The translations under genes were made by a program, and so were the position numbers. This document shows, piece by piece, positions 1,835 to 54,806 of a stretch of 64,000 bases of DNA. Position 1 is the stretch's first letter, and every line of letters starts with the position of its first letter. The notes below the pieces were generated by a model. That model was not told the DNA's origin. It saw only the letters and a list, made by a program, of their open reading frames with translations, and did no database searches. The DNA is from an uncultured virus (IMG/VR IMGVR_UViG_3300027708_001828) (taxonomy: Duplodnaviria > Heunggongvirae > Uroviricota > Caudoviricetes), in the IMG/VR virus record IMGVR_UViG_3300027708_001828. One strand, 5' to 3'.

Positions 1835-2890
1835 TTATCCGCCGAAGTAGTTAGACCAAATCTTAGCAGTTTGATCTGTATAATGTGTAAGACTATGCTG
1901 ATGTGTTTCGGCATTTAGATGTGGAAATTTATATGATAAGTGCAGTTTTTCAATGATGCTTTTGCTACTGTTTGGATCTGCACTAAACTCCTTTACCGCC
2001 CAAGGGATTTCATCTGCATTGCCAATTAACGGAACACCTTGGCTAATTAAATCGGCACCTACAATATTGAATGTTTCACTTAGATTACATTGTAGCCCTA
2101 TATCCATAGTTGCACATAGTTCTAAGAATTCTTCTCTTGGACGCCACAAGTGATTGACTAACTCGTGCCCACGGCCGTTTATCTGTTGGAATATACTTTT
2201 TAAGTTTTTAATAACAGGGCCGCCCTGCATTTCGATACGGCCAGCATTGACATGGAATCGTAATTTTTTACCAATTTCATCAGCAAACCCTATAGCCGCT
2301 AATGCTTGTAGTATATGATTCTTCAATGGACGTATTGCTCCAAAGCAACTTATATCGATAGTGTCCTTGGCGGTGTCTAGTACTTTAGAAGTATACGTTT
2401 GCGGATAGTAGTTAGGCAAATAAATTACCTTTTCATTAGTTTGCTCGTCTGTCCAACTGTTACGATGCTTCAAATATATTTTGATATCTTCCATCATACG
2501 TGGCGCATTGATAGCAAGCACAATATTTCTGCAACCAGAATAATCAGCTAGCCAATCAAATGCCATGCCTTCTCCAGCAAGGAACGGTGTTTCACTATGC
2601 ACACGTATAATCCATGTTACCTTAGGATGTAATCTTTGTAATACTGCAAACTTTTCAGGAATGACCCATATTGCTTCTATAATACATTGTGTGGGTCTAT
2701 GCAGTGTTACAAACTTATCTATGCGATTATAATCTTCAACAACTTCCAAATGACTTTCAATGTTGTGTTCAATCAGCATGTCGTTCATGAATTTGGCACT
2801 GTTATACAGACCCGTGCTTAGACCAACGTGAGTATGCTCTTTGGCATCAAAATCAGGACGACGTTTTAGAATGAATAGAACTTTTGACAT
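1835..2890 (-). CDS. Glycosyltransferase-like (GT-B/GT4) protein
   Basis: FGAIRPLKN and SETFNIVGADLISQGVP resemble GT4 C-terminal motifs. Confidence 0.6.
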   Translation of the reverse strand: MSKVLFILKRRPDFDAKEHTHVGLSTGLYNSAKFMNDMLIEHNIESHLEVVEDYNRIDKFVTLHRPTQCIIEAIWVIPEKFAVLQRLHPKVTWIIRVHSETPFLAGEGMAFDWLADYSGCRNIVLAINAPRMMEDIKIYLKHRNSWTDEQTNEKVIYLPNYYPQTYTSKVLDTAKDTIDISCFGAIRPLKNHILQALAAIGFADEIGKKLRFHVNAGRIEMQGGPVIKNLKSIFQQINGRGHELVNHLWRPREEFLELCATMDIGLQCNLSETFNIVGADLISQGVPLIGNADEIPWAVKEFSADPNSSKSIIEKLHLSYKFPHLNAETHQHSLTHYTDQTAKIWSNYFGG

Positions 2891-2958
2891 GTGTTCTCGC
2901 TACTGTGTTATCAGTATTTATGCTAATACTAGCATATAAAGATTACGAGAAGATTAAT

Positions 2959-3052
2959 GCTCACTTTAGAGATTACTAGGTAGCGAATCGTTCGTCTCTA
3001 GGCAGCAGCCGCCTACACCATCGGTAACAAGTACCGGTCCTAAGGTGTGTTC
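2959..3052. ncRNA. Structured element, copy A (unidentified)
   Basis: Homologous to 44843..44935 with compensatory changes. Confidence 0.65.
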
Positions 3053-3065
3053 TTATATACTTTAT

Positions 3066-3848
3066 TTACCTACCTATGTATACCTGCGGCTGAGCTTCTT
3101 GCCTACGTTGTTCTTCACTCTTGGGAAATAACCCATCACCGTATTGCGGATATTTTTTCTGACGATCATATGCTACATACATCATGGTAAAACCAAAAGT
3201 AAAAATTATTAAGATAATAGCAACTCCTACTATTGCTTCGTCTCTAAGTCTCTTCATCCGGGCCGCACGTCTTCTGTCGTGTACTGCTTGTTGTTTCATC
3301 TGGGCTGTGATGAGAACACTTTGTTCTTTGCCCATTTGCTTCATCATGGCTTCTACTTCTGTATACAATGCTCCAAGTTCCGGTGGACTTTGATATACCA
3401 TTAGTTCACGTAGTTCTATACTCATCTGTTCTAATTGTTTTTTCATTAGAACACGTTGTAAAGCACGTTTGCCTAAACTGTCATCACCGTGATAAATTTC
3501 AGTTTTGGCGCGGCGCTCTTCTTCTTCAAAGATAGCCATACACTTGTAGAAGTTATCGTAATATGCGCCAAGATGATTGCCAATCTCTGTATAGACTCCT
3601 GTAGTCTCGCCTGAGTTAGCTTTTTTGTTTAATTCTATTACACGATTTTTTTCTTCTATGTAGGCATTCTTCTGTGCTACAGTAGGAGGTTTTTCAGGAG
3701 GATGAAGTTTGTGGAACTGATCGTCTAGATCTTTGAGTACTTCTTTAACTTCGCCAGCCGCGCCCTTAATATCTTTGTAAAGTTTGCAACCGGCCTTAAC
3801 CGCGGAGACTGCTCCATTGGCAAGGGCAAATAGGGTAATAGGATCCAT
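3066..3848 (-). CDS. Hypothetical coiled-coil protein with C-terminal TM
   Basis: 260-aa ORF, hydrophobic segment near C-terminus. Confidence 0.75.
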   Translation of the reverse strand: MDPITLFALANGAVSAVKAGCKLYKDIKGAAGEVKEVLKDLDDQFHKLHPPEKPPTVAQKNAYIEEKNRVIELNKKANSGETTGVYTEIGNHLGAYYDNFYKCMAIFEEEERRAKTEIYHGDDSLGKRALQRVLMKKQLEQMSIELRELMVYQSPPELGALYTEVEAMMKQMGKEQSVLITAQMKQQAVHDRRRAARMKRLRDEAIVGVAIILIIFTFGFTMMYVAYDRQKKYPQYGDGLFPKSEEQRRQEAQPQVYIGR

Positions 3849-3860
3849 TACCCTGGATCC

Positions 3861-4445
3861 TTAGAAGAATAAGAATACGCCCTGAAGACTTAAAAGTATG
3901 CCAATACCTGCTACTACAAAACTACTCCAGAACAACATCATACTAACAGCAAGAATACTTGCCGATAATACAACAATTGCTAACTGGTATGCGGTGCTTG
4001 CATAACCAATCCAAGGACTACGTGTCTTAGCATCATCTCGTTCTGCTTCTAAGGCTTTGGCCTTAATCATTAAATCTTTCTTACCTTCTTTAGGTTCGTT
4101 TTCATAACGATCAATCTTTGCGGCCATTTCTGCGGCACGGGCTTTATCGCCGTTGTGTTGGGCTTCGTACAGATTTTGTTCTGCTAGACTTTGCTTGATT
4201 GATTTGGCTTGATAAAAGCTATAAGTGTCGTTGGCTTTGATAGTATTGTTTAATACTGTGCTACCCAACTTGCCGCCATACCATGCGTTAAGTGCAAGAC
4301 ATAATGCAAATATGTTAATAACCATACCTGCTTTGTCTTTAATCTTTGCTTCGCGTTCGCTACGTGAGCCAACTGGTGGCTTTGGTGCGTCTGGGTCTTT
4401 TGGTGTTTTGTTGATTAAGTTCAACACTGAGTCTATAAGTGCCAT
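3861..4445 (-). CDS. Membrane protein, DUF4337-like
   Basis: Start reassigned to MALIDS (GGGAG RBS); YSFYQAKSIKQ motif and 3 TM segments. Confidence 0.6.
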   Translation of the reverse strand: MALIDSVLNLINKTPKDPDAPKPPVGSRSEREAKIKDKAGMVINIFALCLALNAWYGGKLGSTVLNNTIKANDTYSFYQAKSIKQSLAEQNLYEAQHNGDKARAAEMAAKIDRYENEPKEGKKDLMIKAKALEAERDDAKTRSPWIGYASTAYQLAIVVLSASILAVSMMLFWSSFVVAGIGILLSLQGVFLFF

Positions 4446-4565
4446 TGATTCGCTCCCGGCTTGTGTTAATATACTAGTATTTATAACTTTTTGGTTAATA
4501 TACAAGCCAGCTAAATACATTGTGGCGTACTAGCGCCGGCAAATATACTAGATCAGGAGAATTTC

Positions 4566-44039: not shown

Positions 44040-44198
44040 TTAGGAGCCGCCAACCAGTTTATTAAATGCAGGTTGTTTGCCATCTTTACGCGGTTTAGCA
44101 GTGCCACGCAGTTGCCCGGCAATACCTGCTTTTTGCCCAACTTTTGCTCCGGCAAAATAATATTTTTTTGCTTCGTTAGTAAATTCACTTGCCCGCAT
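44040..44198 (-). CDS. Small basic protein (52 aa)
   Basis: MRASEFTNEAKKYYFAGAKVGQKAG...KLVGGS; read manually. Confidence 0.55.
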   Translation of the reverse strand: MRASEFTNEAKKYYFAGAKVGQKAGIAGQLRGTAKPRKDGKQPAFNKLVGGS

Positions 44199-44817
44199 GT
44201 TTCTTCCTACCAGCTTTCATATTGGCTAACCAATGTGCTAACTGTCCTTTGCGTCCGCCTTGCTTGGCAGTTTTGCGCAGACTACTGACACTGGCTTTGG
44301 TATTGATACCATGGCGTTTGGCATCACCTTTGTCTTGGGGATTGCGTCCGTCAGCAAAGTTTTCCGGCAACGATCCGTATGCTTGTTGTTGTTTAATCCA
44401 TTGTTCCAAGGCAGCATATTCGCTTGCACTAAATTGGGGTTGTTGTCCTTTAGCGTTGGCATCTTTAATACGCTGTAAGTACATTCTTATGTGTGGCGGG
44501 GGAACTGTGTCCAAGGCAGCTTTATCTGCAGCCACAGCCGCTCGCATTGTTGATAAACTACTAGTAGGTTTTGTTGCAGTTTTGACCACAGGCTTTGACA
44601 AGAAACTCATGAGTCCTTCATCTACATCTTGTTTTTCTAGATACCGTTTGACTTTGAGTAGTTGTGCTTGATTCAAGTCGTCTAAATGTTCTTTACCCGT
44701 CAACCTTTTGGTGAGAGCAAGAAAGCTGGGCTTGTCATCCCATTTTACACCTTTGGCATCGGCCAGGGTGTGTATATTTTTGGGAGTTAGACCTTCTAGG
44801 ATTTCTTTAACTTTCAT
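44185..44817 (-). CDS. Hypothetical (possible internal head) protein
   Basis: MKVKEILE start; ENFADG motif. Confidence 0.65.
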   Translation of the reverse strand: MKVKEILEGLTPKNIHTLADAKGVKWDDKPSFLALTKRLTGKEHLDDLNQAQLLKVKRYLEKQDVDEGLMSFLSKPVVKTATKPTSSLSTMRAAVAADKAALDTVPPPHIRMYLQRIKDANAKGQQPQFSASEYAALEQWIKQQQAYGSLPENFADGRNPQDKGDAKRHGINTKASVSSLRKTAKQGGRKGQLAHWLANMKAGRKKHAGK

Positions 44818-44842
44818 ACAGCTATTTATTCAAGAAAAGGCC

Positions 44843-44935
44843 ACACTTTAGGGATTGCCGGTAGCGAATCAGTTTTCCCAAGGCAGTGGCCGCCTATTCA
44901 CATTCGGTAACTAGTACCGGTCCTAAGGTGAATTC
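44843..44935. ncRNA. Structured element, copy B (unidentified)
   Basis: Homologous to 2959..3052. Confidence 0.65.
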
Positions 44936-44938
44936 TTT

Positions 44939-45274
44939 TTATTTTTTATTTTTGATATTGTCAGCTTCGTCCATGGCATCATGGAACTTGACGTTGGCTT
45001 GTGCTTCCACTATGGCAGTTTCCATAACACGATCTGATTCGATCATCTTGCCACGAATGGTCAGCACTGTGTTGACTTTTTGATTCAAACGAATTAGGTC
45101 ATTGTCCAACATGCGTACACGATCTATCAGTGCGATAAGCACAGTGTTGGCATCGTTGATAACAGGCTTGATTTCTTTGGTTGCCCATTCCCACACATAC
45201 TTGATAATGAAACCCATTCCCACAGCCATTACTATGGGAAATCCGTACTTGTTGACTAGATCTACTACATCCAT
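44939..45274 (-). CDS. Small membrane protein with GFPI motif
   Basis: Paralog of 240..605. Confidence 0.7.
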   Translation of the reverse strand: MDVVDLVNKYGFPIVMAVGMGFIIKYVWEWATKEIKPVINDANTVLIALIDRVRMLDNDLIRLNQKVNTVLTIRGKMIESDRVMETAIVEAQANVKFHDAMDEADNIKNKK

Positions 45275-45414
45275 TACAGCACCTTACCTAATACATATCC
45301 CACTACAAACACAATAGCACAGAATTTTAATAAATCTCTATCAGTCCAAATCTGATGATCGATACCAAATTCTGCTATGCTTTGCGGCATTCTGTTTATT
45401 TTTTGTTTATTCAT
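45274..45414 (-). CDS. Small membrane protein (46 aa)
   Basis: Fills the gap with overlapping start/stop; C-terminal TM. Confidence 0.5.
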   Translation of the reverse strand: MNKQKINRMPQSIAEFGIDHQIWTDRDLLKFCAIVFVVGYVLGKVL

Positions 45415-45601
45415 TGCAGTTCACCTTGTGTCCTCGAGCAAATTGCTCTACTGGGTCCAACTTGACTAGCATACTACGGCCGTCACGATTGACAACTTTG
45501 AAACAGTCGCCATGTTTCCAGCCCAGTGCATCTATGTTTAATTCGGGGTCAAACTTGATGTACTCGGGCTCTAGGTCCCAGTCGTAATCGTAATGCCTCA
45601 T
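45407..45601 (-). CDS. Hypothetical protein
   Basis: Paralog of 589..786. Confidence 0.75.
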   Translation of the reverse strand: MRHYDYDWDLEPEYIKFDPELNIDALGWKHGDCFKVVNRDGRSMLVKLDPVEQFARGHKVNCNE

Positions 45602-45882
45602 TAATCTCTCCTTGCATCGTTCTTGCCGTCTGCACGGCTGATACGGTCTACATCTGGCCGTAAGCCGAGAGCATTTGATACAATAGTGTCAATGCGGATT
45701 ACATCATGGTTCATGGTTTTTACACGATTATCAAGTGCTGTGATAATACCAGCCATGCCCTTTACGCTACTAAGGACACCTGCCAGTAACAACTTGATCG
45801 TTAGATACACAAAATAGCCGCCTGCTAGTGCTGCCGCGACAGGAAACCCAAGGTCCCCGATGATTTTGAAAATTTCGCCCAT
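45601..45882 (-). CDS. Small membrane protein with GFPV motif
   Basis: Paralog of 786..1064. Confidence 0.7.
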   Translation of the reverse strand: MGEIFKIIGDLGFPVAAALAGGYFVYLTIKLLLAGVLSSVKGMAGIITALDNRVKTMNHDVIRIDTIVSNALGLRPDVDRISRADGKNDARRD

Positions 45883-45988
45883 TTCCGATTCGCTCCCGGT
45901 ATAAAAGTATTTATGCTATTTCTAGCCAAAATGCATTGCTATCTTGCTAGAAAGGATATATAATACTAACTGTACAAAGGAGAGCACT

Positions 45989-46096: not shown

Positions 46097-46164
46097 CACA
46101 AGGTCGCGTAAAATCAGTCAAAGCTAGAGCCAAACGTGCAACTCGTAAAGCACGTAACAAGTAA
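46093..46164 (+). CDS. Very basic micro-protein (23 aa)
   Basis: ATGA overlap with upstream ORF; AGGAG RBS. Confidence 0.55.
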   Translation: MTQGRVKSVKARAKRATRKARNK

Positions 46165-46174
46165 TAGCAAAAGA

Positions 46175-46518
46175 ATTGTTGTACAAGCCTTAAAGTAAGG
46201 CATTCTGGACGCGGGTTCGACTCCCGCCAGGTCCACCATAAGCATATTAGGTCGTTGAGTTAAAAAGTCGCATGTGATGCGCTCAGACTAAAATAGTATG
46301 CTTTTGATGGGCCTGCCATGGTTTCGACAGGGTGAGATAGGATAAAGGTCAACACGTGGGGTCACGTAAAATACAAATAAAGTAAATGCAAAAGCAAATA
46401 CATTCGAGTATTTCCAAGTTCCTGTAACATTAGCTACTGCTAATGATGCAGAATTTGCAATCGCAGCCTAAGAAACTGCACTCGCGAGGTAGGACTTACC
46501 TTGTCATCAAAACAACCA
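46175..46518 (+). ncRNA. ssrA: Circularly permuted (two-piece) tmRNA
   Basis: T arm + CAGGTCCACCA (ends 46238) precedes GGGCCTG...TTCGAC (46309); G3-U pair; tag ORF 46388-46471 ends ANDAEFAIAA; outer ends approximate. Confidence 0.9.
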
Positions 46519-46545
46519 AAAAGGCACTTTCGAGTGCCTTTTTTA
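46519..46545 (+). terminator. Intrinsic terminator
   Basis: aaggcac-tttcga-gtgcctt-T run. Confidence 0.85.
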
Positions 46546-46620
46546 TTGACCAGTAAACAATTTGCATATATAATAGGGTACTGTGTAAAAACAGTCATTT
46601 TAATTAAAAGGAAGTAAAAC

Positions 46621-47758: not shown

Positions 47759-47996
47759 TACAACGTGTGAAGATACCAGTAACGAGGACTGGGCCCTGCA
47801 CGTAAAACATGGGGCGAACGGGCGGCCTATCGGATGGAACTCCTCTTCTGGAGCTAAAAATGGTAGCGTATCGAAGCATTCTCGGGCCGATAGAGGCAAG
47901 TGGGTTCATCCATGTAGAATGCTTCGATACACACTTTCCAACACTACCTGAAATAGTGCTTGACATAGTCAACGGAGAGTGTTAAAATTAAAATCT

Positions 47997-48085
47997 GGAA
48001 GTGTGCGCTGAATTGGTTGAAGGCAACGGACTGTAAATCCGCCACATAAGAAACATTGTTGGTTCGAATCCAACCACTTCCACCA
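47997..48085 (+). tRNA. tRNA-Tyr(GTA)
   Basis: Cloverleaf, long variable arm, CCA. Confidence 0.9.
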
Positions 48086-48090
48086 AATTT

Positions 48091-48165
48091 GGTCCTGTCA
48101 TATAGTGGTTATTATACCGGCCTGTCTAGTCGGATATCGGGGTTCGATTCCCCGCAGGATCGCCA
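48091..48165 (+). tRNA. tRNA-Asp(GTC)
   Basis: Cloverleaf, CCA. Confidence 0.88.
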
Positions 48166-48173
48166 AGTATATT

Positions 48174-48250
48174 CGGAGTGTAGCGCAGTCTGGTAGCGCA
48201 CCTGGTTTGGGACCAGGGGGTCCAAGGTTCGAATCCTTGTACTCCGACCA
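48174..48250 (+). tRNA. tRNA-Pro(TGG)
   Basis: Cloverleaf, CCA. Confidence 0.95.
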
Positions 48251-48257
48251 ATTTTAT

Positions 48258-48332
48258 GCACGGTTCGTCTATCGGTTAGGACACTGGCCTTTCACGTCAG
48301 TAAGACGGGTTCGATTCCCGTACCGTGTACCA
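48258..48332 (+). tRNA. tRNA-Glu(TTC)
   Basis: Cloverleaf, CCA. Confidence 0.92.
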
Positions 48333-48334
48333 AG

Positions 48335-48525
48335 AACGTTCCGCTTTGTTAGCGGATACTGTGACCCGCAGGATGGGAAGTGAGGTGACTCTCAAGGGTG
48401 GTTCTAGTCTTACCGAACTAGCGTTAGCAACACGATAGCGGTCCCTGTCGGGAAGCGGGTGGAGGGCATGCGTGATGGACCTAGTCCTGATGTGCTATAA
48501 TTACCGCCGAGGGATGTCAGAGCTT
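48335..48525 (+). ncRNA. Unidentified GC-rich structured RNA candidate
   Basis: Non-coding spacer with several hairpins. Confidence 0.45.
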
Positions 48526-48527
48526 TT

Positions 48528-48601
48528 CCTCTTGTAGTTAAATGGTATAACAGTCGGCTGATAACCGGCCATTACAAGTTCGATTCTTGTCGAGAGGACC
48601 A
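48528..48601 (+). tRNA. tRNA-Ile(GAT)
   Basis: Cloverleaf, CCA. Confidence 0.9.
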
Positions 48602-48629
48602 ATTTTTAACAAAGAACAAAGGAAATGTT

Positions 48630-49007
48630 ATGTCATATAGTGACTGGAATAACTCTGCTAAAATAGCAGACATGGTAGGTAAAACTTTTACAAGTGTAAA
48701 AGCAGATGGCAACGAGTTGGTGTTTGAAAACAGCGTGGATCGTTATGTGTTCTTTCATGCACAAGATTGTTGCGAACATGTGCGCATTGAAGACATCGCG
48801 GGCGACTTGAGCGACCTAGAAGGTGAACCTTTAGTAATAGCAGACGAAGTTGAAGGTGAAAGCCCAGCTGACTTTGAAGCATACGAAAGTTACACTTGGA
48901 CATTTTACAAGTTCGCTACTCGCAAGGGCTATGTGGACGTGAGATGGCTAGGAGAAAGCAACGGGTACTACAGCGAAAGCGTAAACCTAGGATACGAAAC
49001 AGTTTAA
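48630..49007 (+). CDS. Hypothetical acidic phage protein
   Basis: HAQDCCEHV...WLGESNGYYSE. Confidence 0.8.
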   Translation: MSYSDWNNSAKIADMVGKTFTSVKADGNELVFENSVDRYVFFHAQDCCEHVRIEDIAGDLSDLEGEPLVIADEVEGESPADFEAYESYTWTFYKFATRKGYVDVRWLGESNGYYSESVNLGYETV

Positions 49008-49057
49008 TTTTATAAAAGGAGATCTGTCATGACCAGTGACAAGAGTGATAAGATGAT

Positions 49058-49132
49058 GGGGGTATAACTTAACGGCTAAAGTAGCGGGCTTTTAACCCGT
49101 AAATCAGAGTTCGATTCTCTGTGCCCCTACCA
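49058..49132 (+). tRNA. tRNA-Lys(TTT)
   Basis: Cloverleaf, CCA. Confidence 0.9.
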
Positions 49133-49307
49133 TATAAAAACATACTGGATCTTCTAGTGGACTAAGACGCTGGCAAATAGGTCGGTGAACGTGGTGTTCA
49201 AATCCCACTCTAGTGTGTTTCTATATGGTATTACTTGTAGATAAATCGAGATTGTTTTTTAATCTCTTTAATCTTTTTCCTATACTTGAAACGGATGTAT
49301 AAAGATT

Positions 49308-50111
49308 TTAAAAATGCAAACATTTAATCTTCTCAGCTAGATCTTTGGCTATTAGATCGTGTCCGGATTGCGTAAAATGCCATTGGGGCAAGTAGTCAGC
49401 ATTTGTTATTTCTTCCAAAGATTTAGCAGTTAGTTTAAAGTCATAAAACTCTTTTAACAACTGCTGTTGGATATCATTTAACAAGATTGGATCTTTTTCA
49501 TTCACTATTAGATCGACCTCTTGCCCTTTTAGGTGCGGTTCTTCCAAAGGTTGATTTAACTTAGTAGGCGAGATACGTAACAGATAACAGGGTATATTTT
49601 TAGAACGAAGTAGTCTTACAGCATATAGCACAGACACATAGTCTTCAACCATCGTAAGCGATTCGTTAAAAAATTCAAGAAAGAATTCTTGCATGATATT
49701 GTTTTGTCTACTATTTAAAAAATGAGTCGGCCAGTTTGGTTGTAGAACTGCACTGTTTACTAGGTTATTTGAATAATTCACTAGTAGTCGATTATGAGTA
49801 GTCATTTGAATCACTGCTACAGTATCATCGTAGTGGTTTTCAGGAAATTTTAAAATAGCTCGCATAGCTATTTCTTTATTGGAAATACCTCGTAGGGCAA
49901 TATTTTCAATCTCTGCATTGAGTAGATTGCCTACCAATGATGGGTAACAATATTGTTTATTATATTCGTTTATTTGTTCATCGGATGCAGACCTAGTAGC
50001 TTTACCAGCTTGAAACACATTCATAGCGGTGTATTGGGGGACGAATTTTTCTTCCCATAGCTCTGTACCAGCGGTAATACTGCATCCTGCGAAAACGATT
50101 TTTTTAATCAT
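49308..50111 (-). CDS. SGNH-hydrolase-like hypothetical protein
   Basis: GCSITAG, GISN, HF...GH. Confidence 0.55.
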   Translation of the reverse strand: MIKKIVFAGCSITAGTELWEEKFVPQYTAMNVFQAGKATRSASDEQINEYNKQYCYPSLVGNLLNAEIENIALRGISNKEIAMRAILKFPENHYDDTVAVIQMTTHNRLLVNYSNNLVNSAVLQPNWPTHFLNSRQNNIMQEFFLEFFNESLTMVEDYVSVLYAVRLLRSKNIPCYLLRISPTKLNQPLEEPHLKGQEVDLIVNEKDPILLNDIQQQLLKEFYDFKLTAKSLEEITNADYLPQWHFTQSGHDLIAKDLAEKIKCLHF

Positions 50112-50138
50112 AGTAAAATATTTATTATAATTTTTTAC

Positions 50139-50214
50139 AGTAGAGTAGCATAGCGGCTAATGCACCACCTTCATACGGTGTTTATCGTGGGTTCGAGTCC
50201 CACCTCTACTACCA
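50139..50214 (+). tRNA. tRNA-CAT (elongator Met or Ile2)
   Basis: Cloverleaf, CCA; identity not resolvable by eye. Confidence 0.85.
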
Positions 50215-50218
50215 AATT

Positions 50219-50294
50219 GGAAGTTTAGCTCAGCTGGTAGAGCGTCTGCCTTACACGCAGAATGTCGGCGGTTCGATCCCGTCAACTTCCACCA
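50219..50294 (+). tRNA. tRNA-Val(TAC)
   Basis: Cloverleaf, CCA. Confidence 0.95.
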
Positions 50295-50300
50295 AACTGT

Positions 50301-50374
50301 TGGGGGTTAGTTAAATGGTATAACCGCGGATTTTGATTCCGCTATTAAAGGTTCGATTCCTTTACCCTCTGCCA
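50301..50374 (+). tRNA. tRNA-Gln(TTG)
   Basis: Cloverleaf, CCA. Confidence 0.9.
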
Positions 50375-50380
50375 ATCAAT

Positions 50381-50456
50381 GGTGTCTTTAGTGTAGTGGC
50401 CTGCACCCTGCTCTGTGAAAGCGGTAGTACCGGATCGATACCGGTAAGGCACCCCA
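50381..50456 (+). tRNA. tRNA-His(GTG)
   Basis: G-1/C73, CCA; atypical ATCGA T loop. Confidence 0.85.
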
Positions 50457-50461
50457 AACAT

Positions 50462-50537
50462 GCTACTTTAGCTGATGTGGTCATAGCGGCGGTCTGAAGA
50501 ACCGTTGAACCAGGTTCGATTCCTGGAGGTAGCACCA
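50462..50537 (+). tRNA. tRNA-Phe(GAA)
   Basis: Cloverleaf, CCA. Confidence 0.9.
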
Positions 50538-50540
50538 AGT

Positions 50541-51044
50541 TTTGTAAGTGTTAGCAAGAGAAAGTCACGCTGTCTAGGTTTCTTCGAAGGACCGAAACAG
50601 TAGAAGGTGATGGGTTCGACACCCACTAGGTCCATTGAGGCGACTAAACTGGACAAGTATTCCAAGTAACTTATCCTGACCCTGCCGGCTCAATTACAAG
50701 GGAAAATGGTTGCGATGAGAGGGACGCAACAACTTACAAATTCAACAGACCCCCGCTTTGTCAGGTTGTGCGGTAAACAATCTGACACTTACTAAGTAAT
50801 TGTATTAGTAAAAGATTTAAGGTGTGATAGTGTTTCGCAAGAACTTTGAGGATGCCGGAAGCGTTCAAAGAGGATAGTTATAGACTATAACACTGATTGG
50901 CAGATAGAGTTGGGTATTGTTTTCAGCATTGACCCAACAGTCGATCACGCATTCCATGTTAGGCGAGACCAAAAGAGCAGATCTGAAAAGTCTGGGTCGC
51001 CACTGCTAACGCAAAACCAAAACTCTGTGAATCTTTTACTAATA
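50541..51044 (+). ncRNA. Large structured non-coding region (two stem-closed domains)
   Basis: Closing stems 50541/50740 and 50803/51044; many internal hairpins. Confidence 0.55.
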
Positions 51045-51051
51045 TCTTTAT

Positions 51052-51127
51052 GCGGGCGTAGCTCAGTTGGTAGAGCATTACCTTGCCAAGGTAAATGTCG
51101 AGAGTTCGAACCTCTTCGCCCGCTCCA
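51052..51127 (+). tRNA. tRNA-Gly(GCC)
   Basis: Cloverleaf, CCA. Confidence 0.95.
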
Positions 51128-51181
51128 AATTATGGCTCCTAGACTTGTTCACATAGTGTCCCCTGGGAGTTTTTCTTTTAT

Positions 51182-51271
51182 GCCCGGGTGGCGAAATTGG
51201 TAGACGCACTTCTCTCAAAAGGAAGAAGGAAAAACACCTAGTTGTGAGTTCGAATCTCATCCCGGGCACCA
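51182..51271 (+). tRNA. tRNA-Leu(CAA)
   Basis: Cloverleaf, long variable arm. Confidence 0.9.
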
Positions 51272-51273
51272 AT

Positions 51274-51365
51274 GCCAGCGAGACTTGACAGTCAGAGAGG
51301 TTTTATAAACCTTTTAGCGCCAGATTAGCGTTCTTGAGAGGGTTTGATTCCCTCCGCTGGTACCA
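51274..51365 (+). tRNA. Atypical tRNA with TAT anticodon (Ile?)
   Basis: 7-bp acceptor, tiny D arm, long variable arm, TTTGA T loop, CCA. Confidence 0.7.
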
Positions 51366-51366
51366 C

Positions 51367-51440
51367 GCTCTTATAATTTAATGGTAGAATGCCTCCTTGG
51401 TATGGAGGCAATGATGGTTCGATTCCCTCTAAGAGCACCA
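51367..51440 (+). tRNA. tRNA-Thr(GGT)
   Basis: Cloverleaf, CCA. Confidence 0.88.
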
Positions 51441-51445
51441 AACAC

Positions 51446-51520
51446 CTGGCTATAGTACAATGGATAGTACAATGAGCTTCTACCTCATGAATGTGGGTTC
51501 GATTCCTGCTAGCCGGACCA
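51446..51520 (+). tRNA. tRNA-Arg(TCT)
   Basis: Cloverleaf, CCA. Confidence 0.9.
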
Positions 51521-51528
51521 ATCAATAT

Positions 51529-51603
51529 CGGCCATTGGTGAAATGGATATCATCTCTGTCTTCGAAACAGAGGGTGTGGGTTCGATTCCTGCATGGCCGG
51601 CCA
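51529..51603 (+). tRNA. tRNA-Arg(TCG)
   Basis: Cloverleaf, CCA. Confidence 0.9.
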
Positions 51604-51632
51604 CGATAAGTCAAATATATTTCACAAAGATG

Positions 51633-51661
51633 TTGACACACAGCATCAGATGTTGTATAAT
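51633..51661 (+). promoter_or_regulatory. Internal sigma70 promoter for second half of tRNA array
   Basis: TTGACA-17-TATAAT. Confidence 0.85.
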
Positions 51662-51714
51662 AGTTGTATACTAGGCAACTGGTACAATAGTTCTTTAAAA
51701 AATTAAAAGCAAAT

Positions 51715-51797
51715 GCCCCGATGGTGGAATTGGTAGACACGCTGGTCTTAGAAGCCAGTGCGCAAGCGTCCGAGTTCGAGTCTCGGTTGGGGCACCA
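51715..51797 (+). tRNA. tRNA-Leu(TAG)
   Basis: Cloverleaf, CCA. Confidence 0.93.
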
Positions 51798-51987
51798 TAT
51801 AAATGCTTTCTGAGTAGCTACAGTGGAACACCGAAATACCGGTCAATGTCGACCATGTACCGGGACCGGCCATGAAGAGTGGGGCTACCGTGGATTCAAG
51901 CGCCACAGAGAGCACCTATATGATCGAGTCTTGGACACGCAGACTTTAAAACGAGGTGGAAGTAGGTGGAAGCCCTACACCTAATAT

Positions 51988-52061
51988 CGCGGGATAGAGT
52001 AACGGTAATTCAGAAGTCTCATAAGCTTCAGATCTTGGTTCGATTCCAGGTCCCGCTACCA
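51988..52061 (+). tRNA. tRNA-Met(CAT), initiator-like
   Basis: CGCGGG start with 1-72 mismatch; lacks the three G-C anticodon-stem pairs. Confidence 0.82.
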
Positions 52062-52067
52062 AATAGA

Positions 52068-52157
52068 GGAAATGTGGCAGAGTCCGGTTTATTGCAACAG
52101 TCTTGAAAACTGTCGAGTCGAAAGGCTCCGTGAGTTCGAATCTCACCGTTTCCGCCA
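52068..52157 (+). tRNA. tRNA-Ser(TGA)
   Basis: Cloverleaf, long variable arm. Confidence 0.93.
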
Positions 52158-52163
52158 AGTTGA

Positions 52164-52237
52164 GTCTCATTAGTATAATGGCAGTATAGCGGTCTCCAAA
52201 ACCGTTGGTCGGGGTTCGAGTCCCTGGTGGGACGCCA
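52164..52237 (+). tRNA. tRNA-Trp(CCA)
   Basis: Cloverleaf, CCA. Confidence 0.9.
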
Positions 52238-52247
52238 AATGTCAATT

Positions 52248-52331
52248 GCGAGAGTGGAGAAATGGTATACTCAAGAGACTTAAAATCTCTCGTCGAAAGG
52301 CATGCGGGTTCGAGTCCCGCTTCTCGCACCA
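52248..52331 (+). tRNA. tRNA-Leu(TAA)
   Basis: Cloverleaf, CCA. Confidence 0.92.
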
Positions 52332-52350
52332 TTCATAAAGGAGATGTAGT

Positions 52351-52494
52351 ATGTCAAAAAGAGAAGATGTTCTAAACAAGGCATACGGCAACGTGCCTCG
52401 TGAAATTGGATTTAGCATAGTATGGGATTTCCTGCCAACTTGGCGCGGTGTGCGATACTACTGGCATAAATTAATACGTAAGATAACAAGATAA
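52351..52494 (+). CDS. Small hypothetical protein (47 aa)
   Basis: MSKREDVLNKAYGNVPREIG...; AGGAG RBS. Confidence 0.55.
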   Translation: MSKREDVLNKAYGNVPREIGFSIVWDFLPTWRGVRYYWHKLIRKITR

Positions 52495-52500
52495 GCAAAA

Positions 52501-52588
52501 GGATAGTTGGCCGAGTGGTTAAGGCAACGGTTTGCTAAACCGTCGTTCCGAAAGGGGCGCATAGGTTCGAATCCTATACTATCCGCCA
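52501..52588 (+). tRNA. tRNA-Ser(GCT)
   Basis: Cloverleaf, long variable arm. Confidence 0.93.
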
Positions 52589-52635
52589 GTACATAGGAGA
52601 TATACTCTCCGCCATTTTTTAAAAAGAGAAAAACT

Positions 52636-52857
52636 ATGATGAAACCAGGCAAGACGTTCAATTTGAACAAACAAACCAAACGCTTTATGGCCACGTTTGT
52701 GAACGCAGAAGATCGTAATCATTTCAAACGCATGATGATCGATGCACAACTGTGCAGTGAAGTTGTTATCAAGAGTGCACCGCGTGACAAGAATGCACCG
52801 CGTGGTACTGCCAACTATCAAACTAACGATACAGGTACAGCAAGTACCGCAGTATAA
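52636..52857 (+). CDS. Hypothetical protein
   Basis: 73-aa ORF, coding-like codon use. Confidence 0.7.
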   Translation: MMKPGKTFNLNKQTKRFMATFVNAEDRNHFKRMMIDAQLCSEVVIKSAPRDKNAPRGTANYQTNDTGTASTAV

Positions 52858-52866
52858 AAGCATTAT

Positions 52867-52942
52867 TCCGCAGTAGCTCAGTCGGTAGAGTAGATGACTG
52901 TTAATCATTTGGTCGGTGGTTCGAGCCCACCCTGTGGAGCCA
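52867..52942 (+). tRNA. tRNA-Asn(GTT)
   Basis: Cloverleaf, CCA. Confidence 0.93.
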
Positions 52943-52947
52943 GGATT

Positions 52948-53023
52948 GGGGGATTAGCTCATTTGGGAGAGCACCTGCTTTGCAAGCAGGGGGTGGTCGG
53001 TTCGATCCCGACATCCTCCACCA
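52948..53023 (+). tRNA. tRNA-Ala(TGC)
   Basis: Cloverleaf, G3-U70, CCA. Confidence 0.95.
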
Positions 53024-53075
53024 AGATCACCATTACACACGGTGTACAATAGGATAAGTAGTGTGTAACAAATTT

Positions 53076-53151
53076 GCCGGTTTAGCTCATTTGGTAGAGC
53101 GCCGCTCTTGTAAGGCGGATGTGGTCAGTTCGATTCCGACAACCGGCACCA
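53076..53151 (+). tRNA. tRNA-Thr(TGT)
   Basis: Cloverleaf, CCA. Confidence 0.92.
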
Positions 53152-53541
53152 AGTTTAAACATATTGAAATCTGTAAAAAGATCAGGTTTGGTATCCCAGT
53201 CACTATGATAGGCATAGCCCATATACTCAATACACCACAATATGTTTATTCGTTTCCCGGGACTACTGGCCGTAACCCAAGTAGCGTAATTACAGTAACG
53301 ATAACTGTACGGTGCATTGGATCTACCGCAAGGCCCGCTATATGGGCGACTTGAGAAATCACAAAGGCAGAGCACTAACTGTCTATATGGAAACATGCGG
53401 TACGGACACCAAGCCTAGTCTAGGGCATTCGGGAGAGTGTAACTAGACACTTTAATCAAACACACTTAGCCTAGCTATAAGCTAGGTTGCAAGGACCACA
53501 CACCATCTTAGAAAAAAGTGTTAAGTGTGTTTGATTAAAGT

Positions 53542-53615
53542 GCGGGATTAGTTTAATGGTAAAACAGCAGATTTCCAATCTTCGGTCAAGAGTTCGATTC
53601 TCTTATCCCGCTCCA
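53542..53615 (+). tRNA. tRNA-Gly(TCC)
   Basis: Cloverleaf, CCA. Confidence 0.9.
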
Positions 53616-53635
53616 ATTTTTAAAAAGGAAAACAA

Positions 53636-53896
53636 ATGAAAGCAAGTCATATTTTGGTAGCCACACGTGAACAAGCTGATGCAATCTTGGCTGAAGCAAC
53701 TGCATTGAATTTTGGATCACTTGCACAGCAGTACAGCTCATGCCCCAGTAAAGCACGTGGTGGCGACTTGGGCGATTTCGGCCCAGGTCAAATGGTCAAG
53801 CCGTTTGAAGATGCTACTGTGGCAACAGCAGTTGGTGCTATTAGCCAGCCAGTGCAAACACAATTTGGTTTTCACTTGATCCATCGCACTGGATGA
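53636..53896 (+). CDS. ppiC: Parvulin-type peptidyl-prolyl isomerase
   Basis: ASHILV, SSCPS..RGGDLG, MVKPFE, TQFGFHLI. Confidence 0.93.
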   Translation: MKASHILVATREQADAILAEATALNFGSLAQQYSSCPSKARGGDLGDFGPGQMVKPFEDATVATAVGAISQPVQTQFGFHLIHRTG

Positions 53897-54453
53897 TAAT
53901 AGATTCAAACGATCTTTGCCGCAAGTATGATTACAGTAGTTTGATCTCAGCTACCGAAAACGACACAGCCATAGGCATTATCAAAAGTATAATCGAAAGC
54001 GGCAACTACTTTAAAAACTCGCCTCCGTTTCAAACACAGGAAAATTTGTTTGGCAGATCCGAGGCAGTTTGGTTGAAATATCGTATGACATTTTTGACCA
54101 GTGTGTTTTTATATTTGGGACACGAAGCCAGAGTCAGCAACATGATGGCTTGGAGTTTTATGACCAATTTGAGCACAGTAGAAGATCGTGACAAATATTG
54201 GCATCATCATGACAAACATTCGGGCAAAAGCCTAAGCGGAATCATGTACTTGCACATCCCCGACGATGTGAAGGATTTTGACACATGTGGCACCGAACTG
54301 GCACCCAATGGGCCAGAGTCTCCTGGCAAATTTTTTGTACGACCCAGTTACTGCTCGTGGATTATCTATCCCAGCAACATTTGGCATAGACCAGGTATTG
54401 TGCAAAGTGACAAATATCGATTTATTTTAGCCGCAGACGTTGACTACGAGTAA
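53893..54453 (+). CDS. 2OG-Fe(II) oxygenase-like protein
   Basis: WHHH, LSGIMYL, YPS.IWH, R. Confidence 0.6.
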   Translation: MIIDSNDLCRKYDYSSLISATENDTAIGIIKSIIESGNYFKNSPPFQTQENLFGRSEAVWLKYRMTFLTSVFLYLGHEARVSNMMAWSFMTNLSTVEDRDKYWHHHDKHSGKSLSGIMYLHIPDDVKDFDTCGTELAPNGPESPGKFFVRPSYCSWIIYPSNIWHRPGIVQSDKYRFILAADVDYE

Positions 54454-54489
54454 AATAGATGTTATAATAACGTTTTAACGGAGATATCA

Positions 54490-54723
54490 ATGCGAAATAC
54501 AACACTTAGCCGTGGTCCAGAAATTGACAGAGAACTGTGCTGTAGCAAAATGGGGACTGGTATGTATGATCTTGTTCTGGCAGCCACAGCTCGAGCAAGA
54601 GAGATCCGTCGTCAGCATAGAAGCAGTGAGTCATATGAGCATATCTATCCAATAGTAACTGCTATACTGGAAATCCAACAAGGCAAGATTGATCCAAAAG
54701 AGTATCTCAAACGAGTACGTTAA
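54490..54723 (+). CDS. rpoZ: RNA polymerase omega subunit-like protein
   Basis: YDLVLAATARAREI...IVTAILEIQQGKI. Confidence 0.75.
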   Translation: MRNTTLSRGPEIDRELCCSKMGTGMYDLVLAATARAREIRRQHRSSESYEHIYPIVTAILEIQQGKIDPKEYLKRVR

Positions 54724-54728
54724 TTCGT

Positions 54729-54806
54729 GCAACGGTGGCAGAGCGGCCCAATGCACCGGATTGCAAATCCGTAAAACCGGGGGTTCAAATCCCTCCCGTT
54801 GCTCCA
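54729..54806 (+). tRNA. tRNA-Cys(GCA)
   Basis: Cloverleaf, U73, CCA. Confidence 0.9.

Follow-up and report, generated by a model that had tools for sequence, protein, structure and literature searches.

What a phage would do with two related, structured intergenic segments is the question raised by the locus at the start of the 64,000-nucleotide (nt) IMG/VR record IMGVR_UViG_3300027708_001828, from an uncultured virus of the Caudoviricetes; this whole stretch of DNA is called the window below. A reading made from the letters alone (hereafter the sequence-only reading) had noticed that 2959-3052 and 44843-44935 resemble each other, and had proposed that the loop of the first is antisense to the ribosome-binding site (RBS) of its own operon and thereby controls the translation of membrane proteins. 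Our follow-up leads elsewhere: rather than privately regulating the operon that carries it, the element probably targets or mimics the ribosome. If confirmed, it would be a compact, highly conserved RNA that offers experimenters clear tests.

Two copies of a pseudoknotted RNA family

The homology of the two segments held up. With flanks included, they share 83% mean column identity over 154 aligned columns, and both were matched by R1, a covariance model built from 113 phage relatives and searched against the 64-kb window. R1 found exactly two copies there, A and B; its third match, at E 3.2, is the leader of the operon that ends in copy B (operon B; operon A ends in copy A). Coordinates and strand below are as matched by R1, with + being sense to 23S ribosomal RNA (rRNA) and the flanking genes on the - strand.

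2951..3057, + strand: copy A, whole element (R1 89.3 bits, E 5.4e-22, model positions 1-100 of 100)
2959..2964, + strand: copy A, P1 5´ strand GCUCAC, of which GCU pairs with AGC 3007-3009 within the Px loop
2968..2999, + strand: copy A, P2, AGAGA 2968-2972 with UCUCU 2995-2999, enclosing P3
2979..2989, + strand: copy A, P3 closing pair G2979-C2989 and loop L3 GUAGCGAAU (2980-2988); GGUAGCGAA equals 23S 1929-1937
3000..3014, + strand: copy A, Px, AGGC 3000-3003 with GCCU 3011-3014; the 7-nt loop AGCAGCC contains the P1 3´ strand
3015..3054, + strand: copy A, 3´ domain, with P4 ACACC 3015-3019 / GGUGU 3044-3048
3022..3036, + strand: copy A, P5, CGGUA 3022-3026 with UACCG 3032-3036, a helix-69-like hairpin
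3035-3046, + strand: copy A, CGGUCCUAAGGU, a 12-mer identical to 23S 1920-1931
3050-3054, + strand: copy A, tail UUCUU
44833..44940, + strand: copy B, whole element (R1 76.2 bits, E 2.2e-18)
44839..44895, + strand: copy B, 5´ part, with P1 GGCCAC 44839-44844 / GUGGCC 44886-44891
44851..44879, + strand: copy B, P2, GGGA 44851-44854 with UCCC 44876-44879
44861-44869, + strand: copy B, loop L3 GUAGCGAAU
44881..44895, + strand: copy B, Px, AGGC 44881-44884 with GCCU 44892-44895
44896..44940, + strand: copy B, 3´ domain, with P4 AUUCAC 44896-44901 / GUGAAU 44928-44933
44905..44919, + strand: copy B, P5, CGGUA 44905-44909 with UACCG 44915-44919, containing GUAACUA (23S 1910-1916)
44918-44929, + strand: copy B, CGGUCCUAAGGU (23S 1920-1931), followed by a U-rich tail

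Read along the window + strand, the element runs from the P1 5´ strand through UU, the P2/P3 hairpin with L3 and the Px hairpin to a single A, P4 and the UUCUU tail. The 7-nt loop of Px (AGGC-AGCAGCC-GCCU) pairs back to the P1 5´ strand, giving an H-type pseudoknot in which a strand outside the hairpin pairs with its loop and covariation lies behind the pairing. The P2/P3 hairpin with its invariant L3 is located inside this pseudoknot, while P4 encloses the invariant GGUCCUAAGG and an optional P5, which many members lack. About 30 unpaired nucleotides are near-invariant in the family.

The fold was evaluated with 113 distinct sequences. Standard pairs occupy 88.3% of cells compared with 65.7% in shuffles, a level reached by none of 500 shuffles, and the covariation score was 0.518 compared with 0.140 for shuffled sequences and at most 0.130 when the partners were slid by 1-3 columns. 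Thirteen of the 14 tested pairs change on both sides, including all three tested in P1 and all four in Px, and pairing by helix was 97.1% for P1, 76.9% for P2, 82.2% for P3 and 97.8% for Px. The P3 closing pair is Watson-Crick in 181/181 sequences, with G-C replaced by A-U in one clade, and in a scan that left the centre free, the central block differed in 104 of 110 distinct sequences, the changes being compensatory. The variants of Px comprise AGGC/GCCU, GCCC/GGGC, AGCC/GGCU, GGGC/GCCC, GGCC/GGCC, CGCC/GGCG, GCGC/GCGC, ACCC/GGGU and CAGC/GCUG, and those of P1 comprise GCUAC/GUAGC, GCCAC/GUGGC, GCUGC/GCAGC and GGU/ACC, with CCUACA/UGUAGG, CCCCCA/UGGGGG and CCCUC/GAGGG in distant members. The pseudoknot, which the sequence-only reading had missed, is supported by covariation; the two stems which that reading had seen to covary (AGAGA/TCTCT with GGGA/TCCC, and ACACC/GGTGT with ATTCAC/GTGAAT) are P2 and P4. 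Two further pairings were considered. One between L3 (GUAGCG) and CGCCUAC was rejected, the centre block varying while L3 stays constant, and for one between GAA of L3 and UUC of the tail the variants show no consistent covariation.

In scans of IMG/VR contigs, a strict three-block pattern matched 92 stretches, a pattern of loop plus 3´ block gave at least 120 matches, and the central block by itself gave more matches than those listed, mixed with chance coding matches; among the matches listed, we gathered 181 distinct element sequences. In five large phage records, two of which are rated 100% (357 kb) and 95% (342 kb) complete, the model located a single copy apiece, which is the usual number, two per genome as in the window being unusual. 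The two copies are members of a large family of structured elements, approximately 85-110 nt long, of uncultured and mostly freshwater phages. One contig (L038) lacks 26 nt of the 3´ domain (TCCTAAGG...GTATG) that are present in the otherwise identical L029 and L037, reflecting either a natural deletion or an assembly slip.

The family was not matched by any Rfam 15 model. At gathering thresholds the whole window gave 29 matches, all to transfer RNA (tRNA) or transfer-messenger RNA (tmRNA); at E values up to 10 the two copies drew chance matches only (best mir-1976, E 0.72), and 20 divergent members drew only L20_leader (E 0.45), located on a flanking terminator. The element was likewise not matched by BLAST in 50,697 GenBank phage records, nor in E. 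coli genomes, where 12-mers are invisible at that database size. Among 185,579 prokaryote genomes there were six pattern matches, of which three are genuine and lie on phage-like contigs of metagenome-assembled genomes (MAGs); the remaining three are fortuitous, falling twice within coding sequence and once within a 23S gene that bears an intron. In the literature, we found the loop words in primers only and found no description of the element. Six element words are absent from the searchable part of the supplements to a catalogue of 10,006 candidate viral structured RNAs (PMC10690425), which may still list the element unnamed. This is a well-supported new structured-RNA family with a pseudoknot, even if its function should be modest.

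The sequence-only reading had placed each copy just after the last stop codon of a short minus-strand group of membrane-protein genes. The stop codons are indeed 3-13 nt away, and by a crude hydropathy scan several upstream proteins have transmembrane (TM)-like segments: two in the DUF4337 protein, one in a 260-amino-acid (aa) protein, two in a 93-aa and one in a 46-aa protein. Further minus-strand genes, however, continue past both copies, copy A lying between open reading frames (ORFs) 3066..3848 and 1835..2890 and copy B between 44939..45274 and 44185..44817. The 93-aa and 46-aa proteins belong to a set of four small minus-strand ORFs (44939-45882) before copy B, which also includes a 111-aa member of phrog_18771; the set has a holin/spanin-like look, for which family assignments give no support.

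Invariant loops and 23S rRNA

A comparison with 23S rRNA was prompted by a chance match of the search pattern in a 23S gene (L454). Using the annotated 23S rRNA of E. coli rrlH as reference (23S position = L460 position + 1801), we found that CGGUCCUAAGGU (DNA CGGTCCTAAGGT; 12 nt) is identical to 1920-1931 and that GGUAGCGAA (DNA GGTAGCGAA; 9 nt), which is L3 with its closing G, is identical to 1929-1937, each in both window copies. GUAACUA (GTAACTA; 7 nt) in P5 of copy B corresponds to 1910-1916, the helix-69 loop. Some members extend the identity to ACGGUCCUAAGGUAG (1919-1933), and the tail UUCUU is similar to UUCCUU at 1939-1944. In 23S, no more than 30 nt separate the exact words, which are the very blocks that stay invariant in the family. 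The best short-BLAST match was at 23S 1910-1929, on the sense strand, in 112 of 121 family members. R1, which was made from phage copies only, had as its top match in the E. coli rrn operon 23S 1842-1942, again in sense (16.7 bits, E 0.004 with filters off in a 4.9-kb search; runner-up E 1). Collinear similarity to the 23S gene is beyond chance, as for a gene fragment, with the 5´ half aligning weakly.

In 23S rRNA, helix 69 spans 1906-1924 and provides the arm of bridge B2a at the decoding centre, while 1925-1931 form its junction with helix 70. By sequence identity, the invariant exposed words of the element are copies of this conserved part of domain IV: the loop and 3´ strand of helix 69, the 69/70 junction and the start of helix 70. 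When 5´ domains were collected with L3 unconstrained, 31 of 42 distinct domains had the canonical loop and 11 were variants. One of these (L174) carries ACGAAUGGCGU (DNA ACGAATGGCGT), identical to 23S 1966-1976, and three (L132, L207 and L212) carry UGGCGUAA (DNA TGGCGTAA), identical to 1971-1978. These words are the opposite strand of the same rRNA helix 70, and the variants fit pairing with helix 70 better than a protein site.

The likeness to domain IV (helix 69-70, 1906-1976, or 1966-1978 for the loop variants) thus covers words, sense and the placing of a hairpin at the helix-69 position, but the element is no piece of an rRNA gene. It is approximately 95 nt of phage intergenic DNA outside any rRNA gene, its stems differ from those of 23S and covary independently, its pseudoknot is without an evident rRNA counterpart, and its 1929-1937 word stands in the loop of another hairpin further upstream. 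A pseudoknot scaffold bearing helix 69-70 words is, for a phage element, new as far as we found; rRNA mimicry and loop-displayed antisense RNAs are already known kinds. Similarities of the Px loop and flanks to 16S rRNA (AGGCAGCAG at 349-357; AGCAGCCGC at 520-528, in the 530 loop) had E 0.35 and fell on variable positions, and were set down to chance, as was the 7-mer GCUCACU (23S 1099-1105), a chance-level match. The L454 gene itself, from a Pseudohongiella MAG, has a group I intron-like insert in helix 69, just before AACGGUCCUAAGG at about 1917/1918; the insert ends ...CCAUG and by coincidence contains GUAGCGAAUC 56 nt upstream.

Loop-leader complementarity in one lineage

Two sites on the gene strand bear on the proposed pairing of loop and RBS.

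4447..4457, - strand: leader/RBS word GGGAGCGAAUC before the DUF4337 gene (3861..4445, -), the first gene of operon A
45887..45897, - strand: the same leader word before the first gene (45601..45882, -) of operon B

The complementarity pointed out by the sequence-only reading is present on the gene strand at 10 of 11 positions, and holds for both window operons. GGGAGCGAATC at 4447-4457 (-) directly precedes the ATG at 4445 and is complementary to the L3 loop with one mismatch; the leader at 45887-45897, which had been missed, can form the hairpin CCG-GGAGCGAAU-CGG. Both sites read CCGGGAGCGAAUC, with the AUG of the operon's first gene following 1-5 nt later. With at most one mismatch, GGTAGCGAATC was found five times in the window compared with 0.55 expected (0/100 shuffles reached five), namely in the two L3 loops (+), at the two GGGAGCGAATC sites (-) and in an unrelated hairpin at 47862. 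The leader word is also 23S 1929-1939 in sense with one change, while being complementary to L3 on the same strand.

Outside the window, the leader was found in L057 and L064, which carry DUF4337 homologues as in operon A, and in L066 and L071, whose DNA is near-identical or carries homologues of operon B. Among 75 loci, taken with flanks of up to 1.5 kb, four have it, representing two gene families of one lineage, and eight other element-bearing phage records, including the 357-kb and 342-kb ones, have the loop word and no leader. As all the 11-mers are identical everywhere, loop and leader show no covariation. RNA-RNA duplex energies, calculated for the element with the leader and with 23S, were dominated by long spurious duplexes. 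What stands of the riboregulator proposed earlier is the structured element, its covarying stems and the leader complementarity in both operons and their relatives; as a general function, the proposal has no support beyond this one lineage. The invariance of L3 is better explained by identity to 23S 1929-1937 than by the leader, and in our view the pairing with the leader is a use that one lineage makes of a loop fixed for another reason. Where a loop and an RBS of a single genome are complementary, the match may just follow from the likeness of both to rRNA. The other idea of the sequence-only reading, that the motifs are DNA inverted repeats bracketing a cassette, found no support, the 11-mer being the only thing in common and nothing resembling terminal repeats.

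Two further words of this kind are found in G002, a near-identical record of this phage. They lie outside the window, each in a hairpin loop, in a non-coding stretch (L333, G002:C1:100300-101200, about positions 180-400). This strongly structured stretch lies downstream of a minus-strand ORF and contains two hairpins with 9-nt loops GGAGCGAAU, the first sharing the 17-mer ACCGGGAGCGAAUCGGA with the operon B leader, with a bidirectional terminator-like hairpin between them; it had no Rfam match at E up to 1. L333 may be a partner of the operon leaders, as a copy or as an antisense.

Gene context, working strand and candidate functions

The window + strand is sense to 23S, and the gene strand (window minus) is antisense. 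Of 74 distinct loci, 47 have both flanking ORFs on the strand opposite to +, the remainder being 11 '-/none', seven '+/-', six 'none/-', one '-/+', one 'none/+' and one with none. The same orientation applies to 433 of the 488 ORFs within 3 kb (68 loci with 8-kb flanks), and the upstream ORF stops within a few nt of the element. Of 158 distinct flanks, 32 have TTGAC[AT] no more than 40 nt away (21 at offset 9; 22 with a well-spaced -10), and many other loci have an ATAAATA(C)U box, which is similar to the T4 late promoter, directly behind GAGC and 4-8 nt ahead of an ATG. Since the next gene's promoter abuts the element, most loci leave no space for a promoter on +. A canonical intrinsic terminator follows the element within approximately 10 nt, in gene orientation, in L359/L238 and in L404; this suits an element in a 3´ untranslated region (UTR) and is awkward for a + strand gene. 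Hairpins with U-runs downstream on + (L033 and L073 groups) were discounted, as they are in coding sequence for an Ala/Gly-rich C-terminus.

A T4 gp43-type DNA polymerase (phrog_262, E 2e-201) is a conserved neighbour; of the 68 loci, 59 have virion proteins upstream, 49 an 86-aa regulator downstream and 55 the polymerase. Across the family the flanking genes are diverse, encoding virion proteins, radical SAM, ferritin, desaturase, isocitrate lyase and terminase. In T4-like relatives (L001-L092 and L334-L453), auxiliary genes accumulate at a hot spot that stretches from the last virion gene to the regulator/DNA-polymerase block, among them radical SAM/SPASM, ferritin/Dps, fatty-acid desaturase, isocitrate lyase, dCMP deaminase, cupin and ferredoxin. 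A 188-nt contig from an RNA library covers 44796-44983, including copy B, with 0 mismatches, and parts of the region were found as contigs in two lake metatranscriptome runs and one probable DNA run.

We tentatively favour an anti-23S element that lies at the 3´ end of phage messenger RNA (mRNA) or between cistrons and pairs with 23S-like RNA. What the data show is family membership, fold, covariation, rRNA identity and gene context; the working strand, the partner and any effect on ribosomes or translation are inferred, as follows. The element would be made as part of the gene-strand phage mRNA, where it directly follows a stop codon and precedes the next promoter or terminator; its loops would then read CCUUAGGACC and GAUUCGCUACC, antisense to 23S at about 1910-1937. 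Family-wide, the partner would be host 23S rRNA, in the mature 50S subunit or nascent, reached by loop-to-strand pairing; in the window lineage, the 23S-like leader GGGAGCGAAUC covering the RBS of the same operon's first gene may serve as an extra partner. Candidate effects are capture or blocking of 50S subunits, interference with 50S assembly and control of the first cistron.

Several observations weigh against this proposal. The pairing presupposes that 23S 1921-1937 is accessible. The 12-mer on its own is not significant (24.3 bits compared with up to 26.3 in 200 shuffles), and windowed coverage by 7-mers, a crude statistic, was equalled in 14 of 1000 shuffles for copy B and was not significant for copy A. 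The rRNA argument therefore rests on the adjacent matches at family-invariant blocks together with the R1 match; by a rough estimate made by hand, a 12-mer with an adjacent 9-mer would arise by chance at the order of 1e-3 or less. The orientation counts are not independent because the loci are largely one syntenic clade. Wobble pairs in P2 are balanced, with 31 G.U and 39 A.C in 121 distinct helices and clear single cases of each, an equality that is unusual for RNA on either strand. Minimum free energies (MFEs) of the whole element show no strand preference (62 compared with 56 of 119), and those of the two domains favour + (109 compared with 48 and 111 compared with 44 of 158); if the element descends from an rRNA gene, the sense (+) strand would inherit rRNA-like folding. 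On +, a -10-like box, TATAAAGA, precedes copy A by 18 nt. Finally, the RNA contigs show presence alone, without strand or ends, and their coverage gaps carry no weight. Neutral helix alignments gave opposite strand answers for the 5´ and 3´ domains, partly as an artefact, and a wobble count over all positions gave noise only.

Some of these points suit the main rival, which we consider possible if rather doubtful: a small RNA from the + strand would mimic the 23S helix 69/70 corner and titrate a factor whose usual target is this part of the ribosome. Candidates are toxins or defence nucleases aimed at ribosomes, modification enzymes, factors of assembly or recycling, and the 30S bridge partner; the 23S-like leader hairpins would bind the same factor. 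All conserved words are in sense to 23S on +, where P5 keeps a helix-69-like hairpin with UAAC in the loop while its stem covaries and where the domain energies point; TATAAAGA recurs 18 nt upstream of L064 and also upstream of the L333 structures, and the leader B and L333 hairpins have their 17-mer in common in the same sense. Most loci, however, have no conserved promoter on +, a neighbour's promoter or start codon abutting the 5´ end, while in L359 and L404 the terminators are directly upstream when read in + orientation. The consistently opposite orientation to the neighbours, the L3 variants with the other helix 70 strand, which are hard to square with one protein site, and the many members without P5 also argue against it. 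An operon-specific riboregulator or 5´-3´ mRNA pairing for membrane-protein genes as the primary function is unlikely: a complementary leader does precede the first gene of both window operons and of the homologous operons of L057, L064 and L066, but its rarity among the loci and records surveyed, the identical words, the diversity of flanking genes and a loop word fixed by 23S identity all speak against it.

We consider it similarly improbable that the element works as DNA, with both strands acting in an rDNA-like recombination, homing or replication site or in a cruciform. G.T and A.C are equally frequent, which a need for folding of both strands would predict, each genome has its one copy at a module boundary, and GGTCCTAAGGT in the 3´ domain overlaps the core of the I-CeuI-type cut site, in the same 23S stretch; that site lies in a conserved part of the 23S gene, is cut with a CTAA overhang and is different in Actinobacteria (PMC2790883). 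Beside this left half, though, the I-CeuI right half is missing, the pseudoknot and loop-specific conservation are typical of RNA, and no endonuclease, integrase or recombinase family recurs within 8 kb in the 68 loci. The paired core sites of integron attC, RYYYAAC ... GTTRRRY, are absent from most members. Less probable still is an ordinary 3´-end element (terminator, processing site or exonuclease block) whose 23S likeness is a relic or chance. It would account for the position between stop codon and next promoter in most loci and for the single copy at the boundary of structural and replication modules. Yet in gene orientation the element ends in AAAGUGAGC with no U-tract after the hairpin, and on + P4 closes a large multiloop before UUCUU, which is at best terminator-like; L359 and L404 have separate canonical terminators beyond the element. 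The invariant loops and pseudoknot far exceed the needs of such roles, and the rRNA words are exactly the invariant blocks, variants switching to neighbouring rRNA words. A self-cleaving ribozyme or ligand-sensing riboswitch of a new class, which size, pseudoknot and the near-invariant unpaired nucleotides might suggest, is very unlikely: no Rfam ribozyme or riboswitch model matches at E up to 10 (twister, pistol, hatchet, hammerhead and HDV-like models on either strand included), a promoter stands between element and next gene in many loci, and rRNA identity accounts for the invariant bases. Strings that look twister-like and signal recognition particle-like had no Rfam support.

The anti-23S proposal has partial parallels among known systems. 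Leaders of ribosomal-protein operons such as the L20 leader are also mRNA-borne structures that copy an rRNA site, but they mimic a protein-binding site in the 5´ UTR of a ribosomal-protein gene in cells, whereas the element is 3´ of genes, has no ribosomal-protein gene nearby and presents antisense words on the gene strand. The orphan phage 'downstream element' motifs of Rfam, such as Mu-gpT-DE, are likewise conserved structures after phage late genes; they differ from the element, with its rRNA-identical loops and pseudoknot. Loop-displayed antisense RNAs and small RNAs derived from 3´ UTRs, both kissing-loop regulators, share the short complementary words in hairpin loops and, in the window lineage, a target at an RBS, but the conserved target word of the element comes from rRNA rather than mRNA, and the element itself is conserved across phages with unrelated neighbouring genes. 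The PeSL cassettes of T4-type phages, a stem-loop with an early promoter at module borders, resemble the element in that it is upstream of a promoter, early-type (TTGACA-N16/17-TATAAT) or late-type, in the variable region of T4-like genomes; they occur in many near-identical copies, unlike the single copy per genome, complex covarying fold and rRNA words of the element.

Taken at its broadest, it is conceivable that a pseudoknot-scaffolded miniature of the inter-subunit corner of the ribosome, 23S helix 69/70, lets uncultured T4-like and jumbo phages act directly on host ribosomes or on ribosome-directed defences. The miniature would serve either as an anti-23S RNA on phage messages, by which 50S subunits or nascent 23S are captured or blocked, or as a decoy for disarming a factor aimed at helix 69-70. 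If true, this would be a new class of phage-host RNA weapon, with the 23S-like leaders of the window phage wired into the same system. If confirmed, it would be a common phage element, spread over many hundreds of contigs that range from small phages to 350-kb ones, and its words would be those most conserved in large-subunit rRNA, where it bridges to the decoding centre. It would point to a direct link at the RNA level between phage and ribosome that is undescribed in Rfam 15, GenBank phages and the literature we found.

Other features of the window concern promoters and translation genes. A box, (T)AGCATAAATACT or CATATAAAGA on the other strand, presumably similar to T4-type late promoters, is found approximately 20-25 nt upstream of the leaders (4447 and 45887, -) and beside copy A, where two boxes (2930-2942, +, and 2917-2929, -) form the palindrome TATTTATGCTAATACTAGCATATAAA. 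The window is phage-like, with a permuted (two-piece) tmRNA at 46126-46562 (tag AKANTFEYFQVPVTLATANDAEFAIAA) and 28 tRNA genes at 47997-54806, all on +, which points to a large phage with its own translation kit. At 47862-47950 (+), a long inverted repeat (GTATCGAAGCATTCT ... AGAATGCTTCGATAC) opens with GGTAGCGTATC; a promoter-like site, TTGACA ... TAAAAT, and the first tRNA gene follow shortly downstream. The resemblance of GGTAGCGTATC to the loop word looks coincidental.

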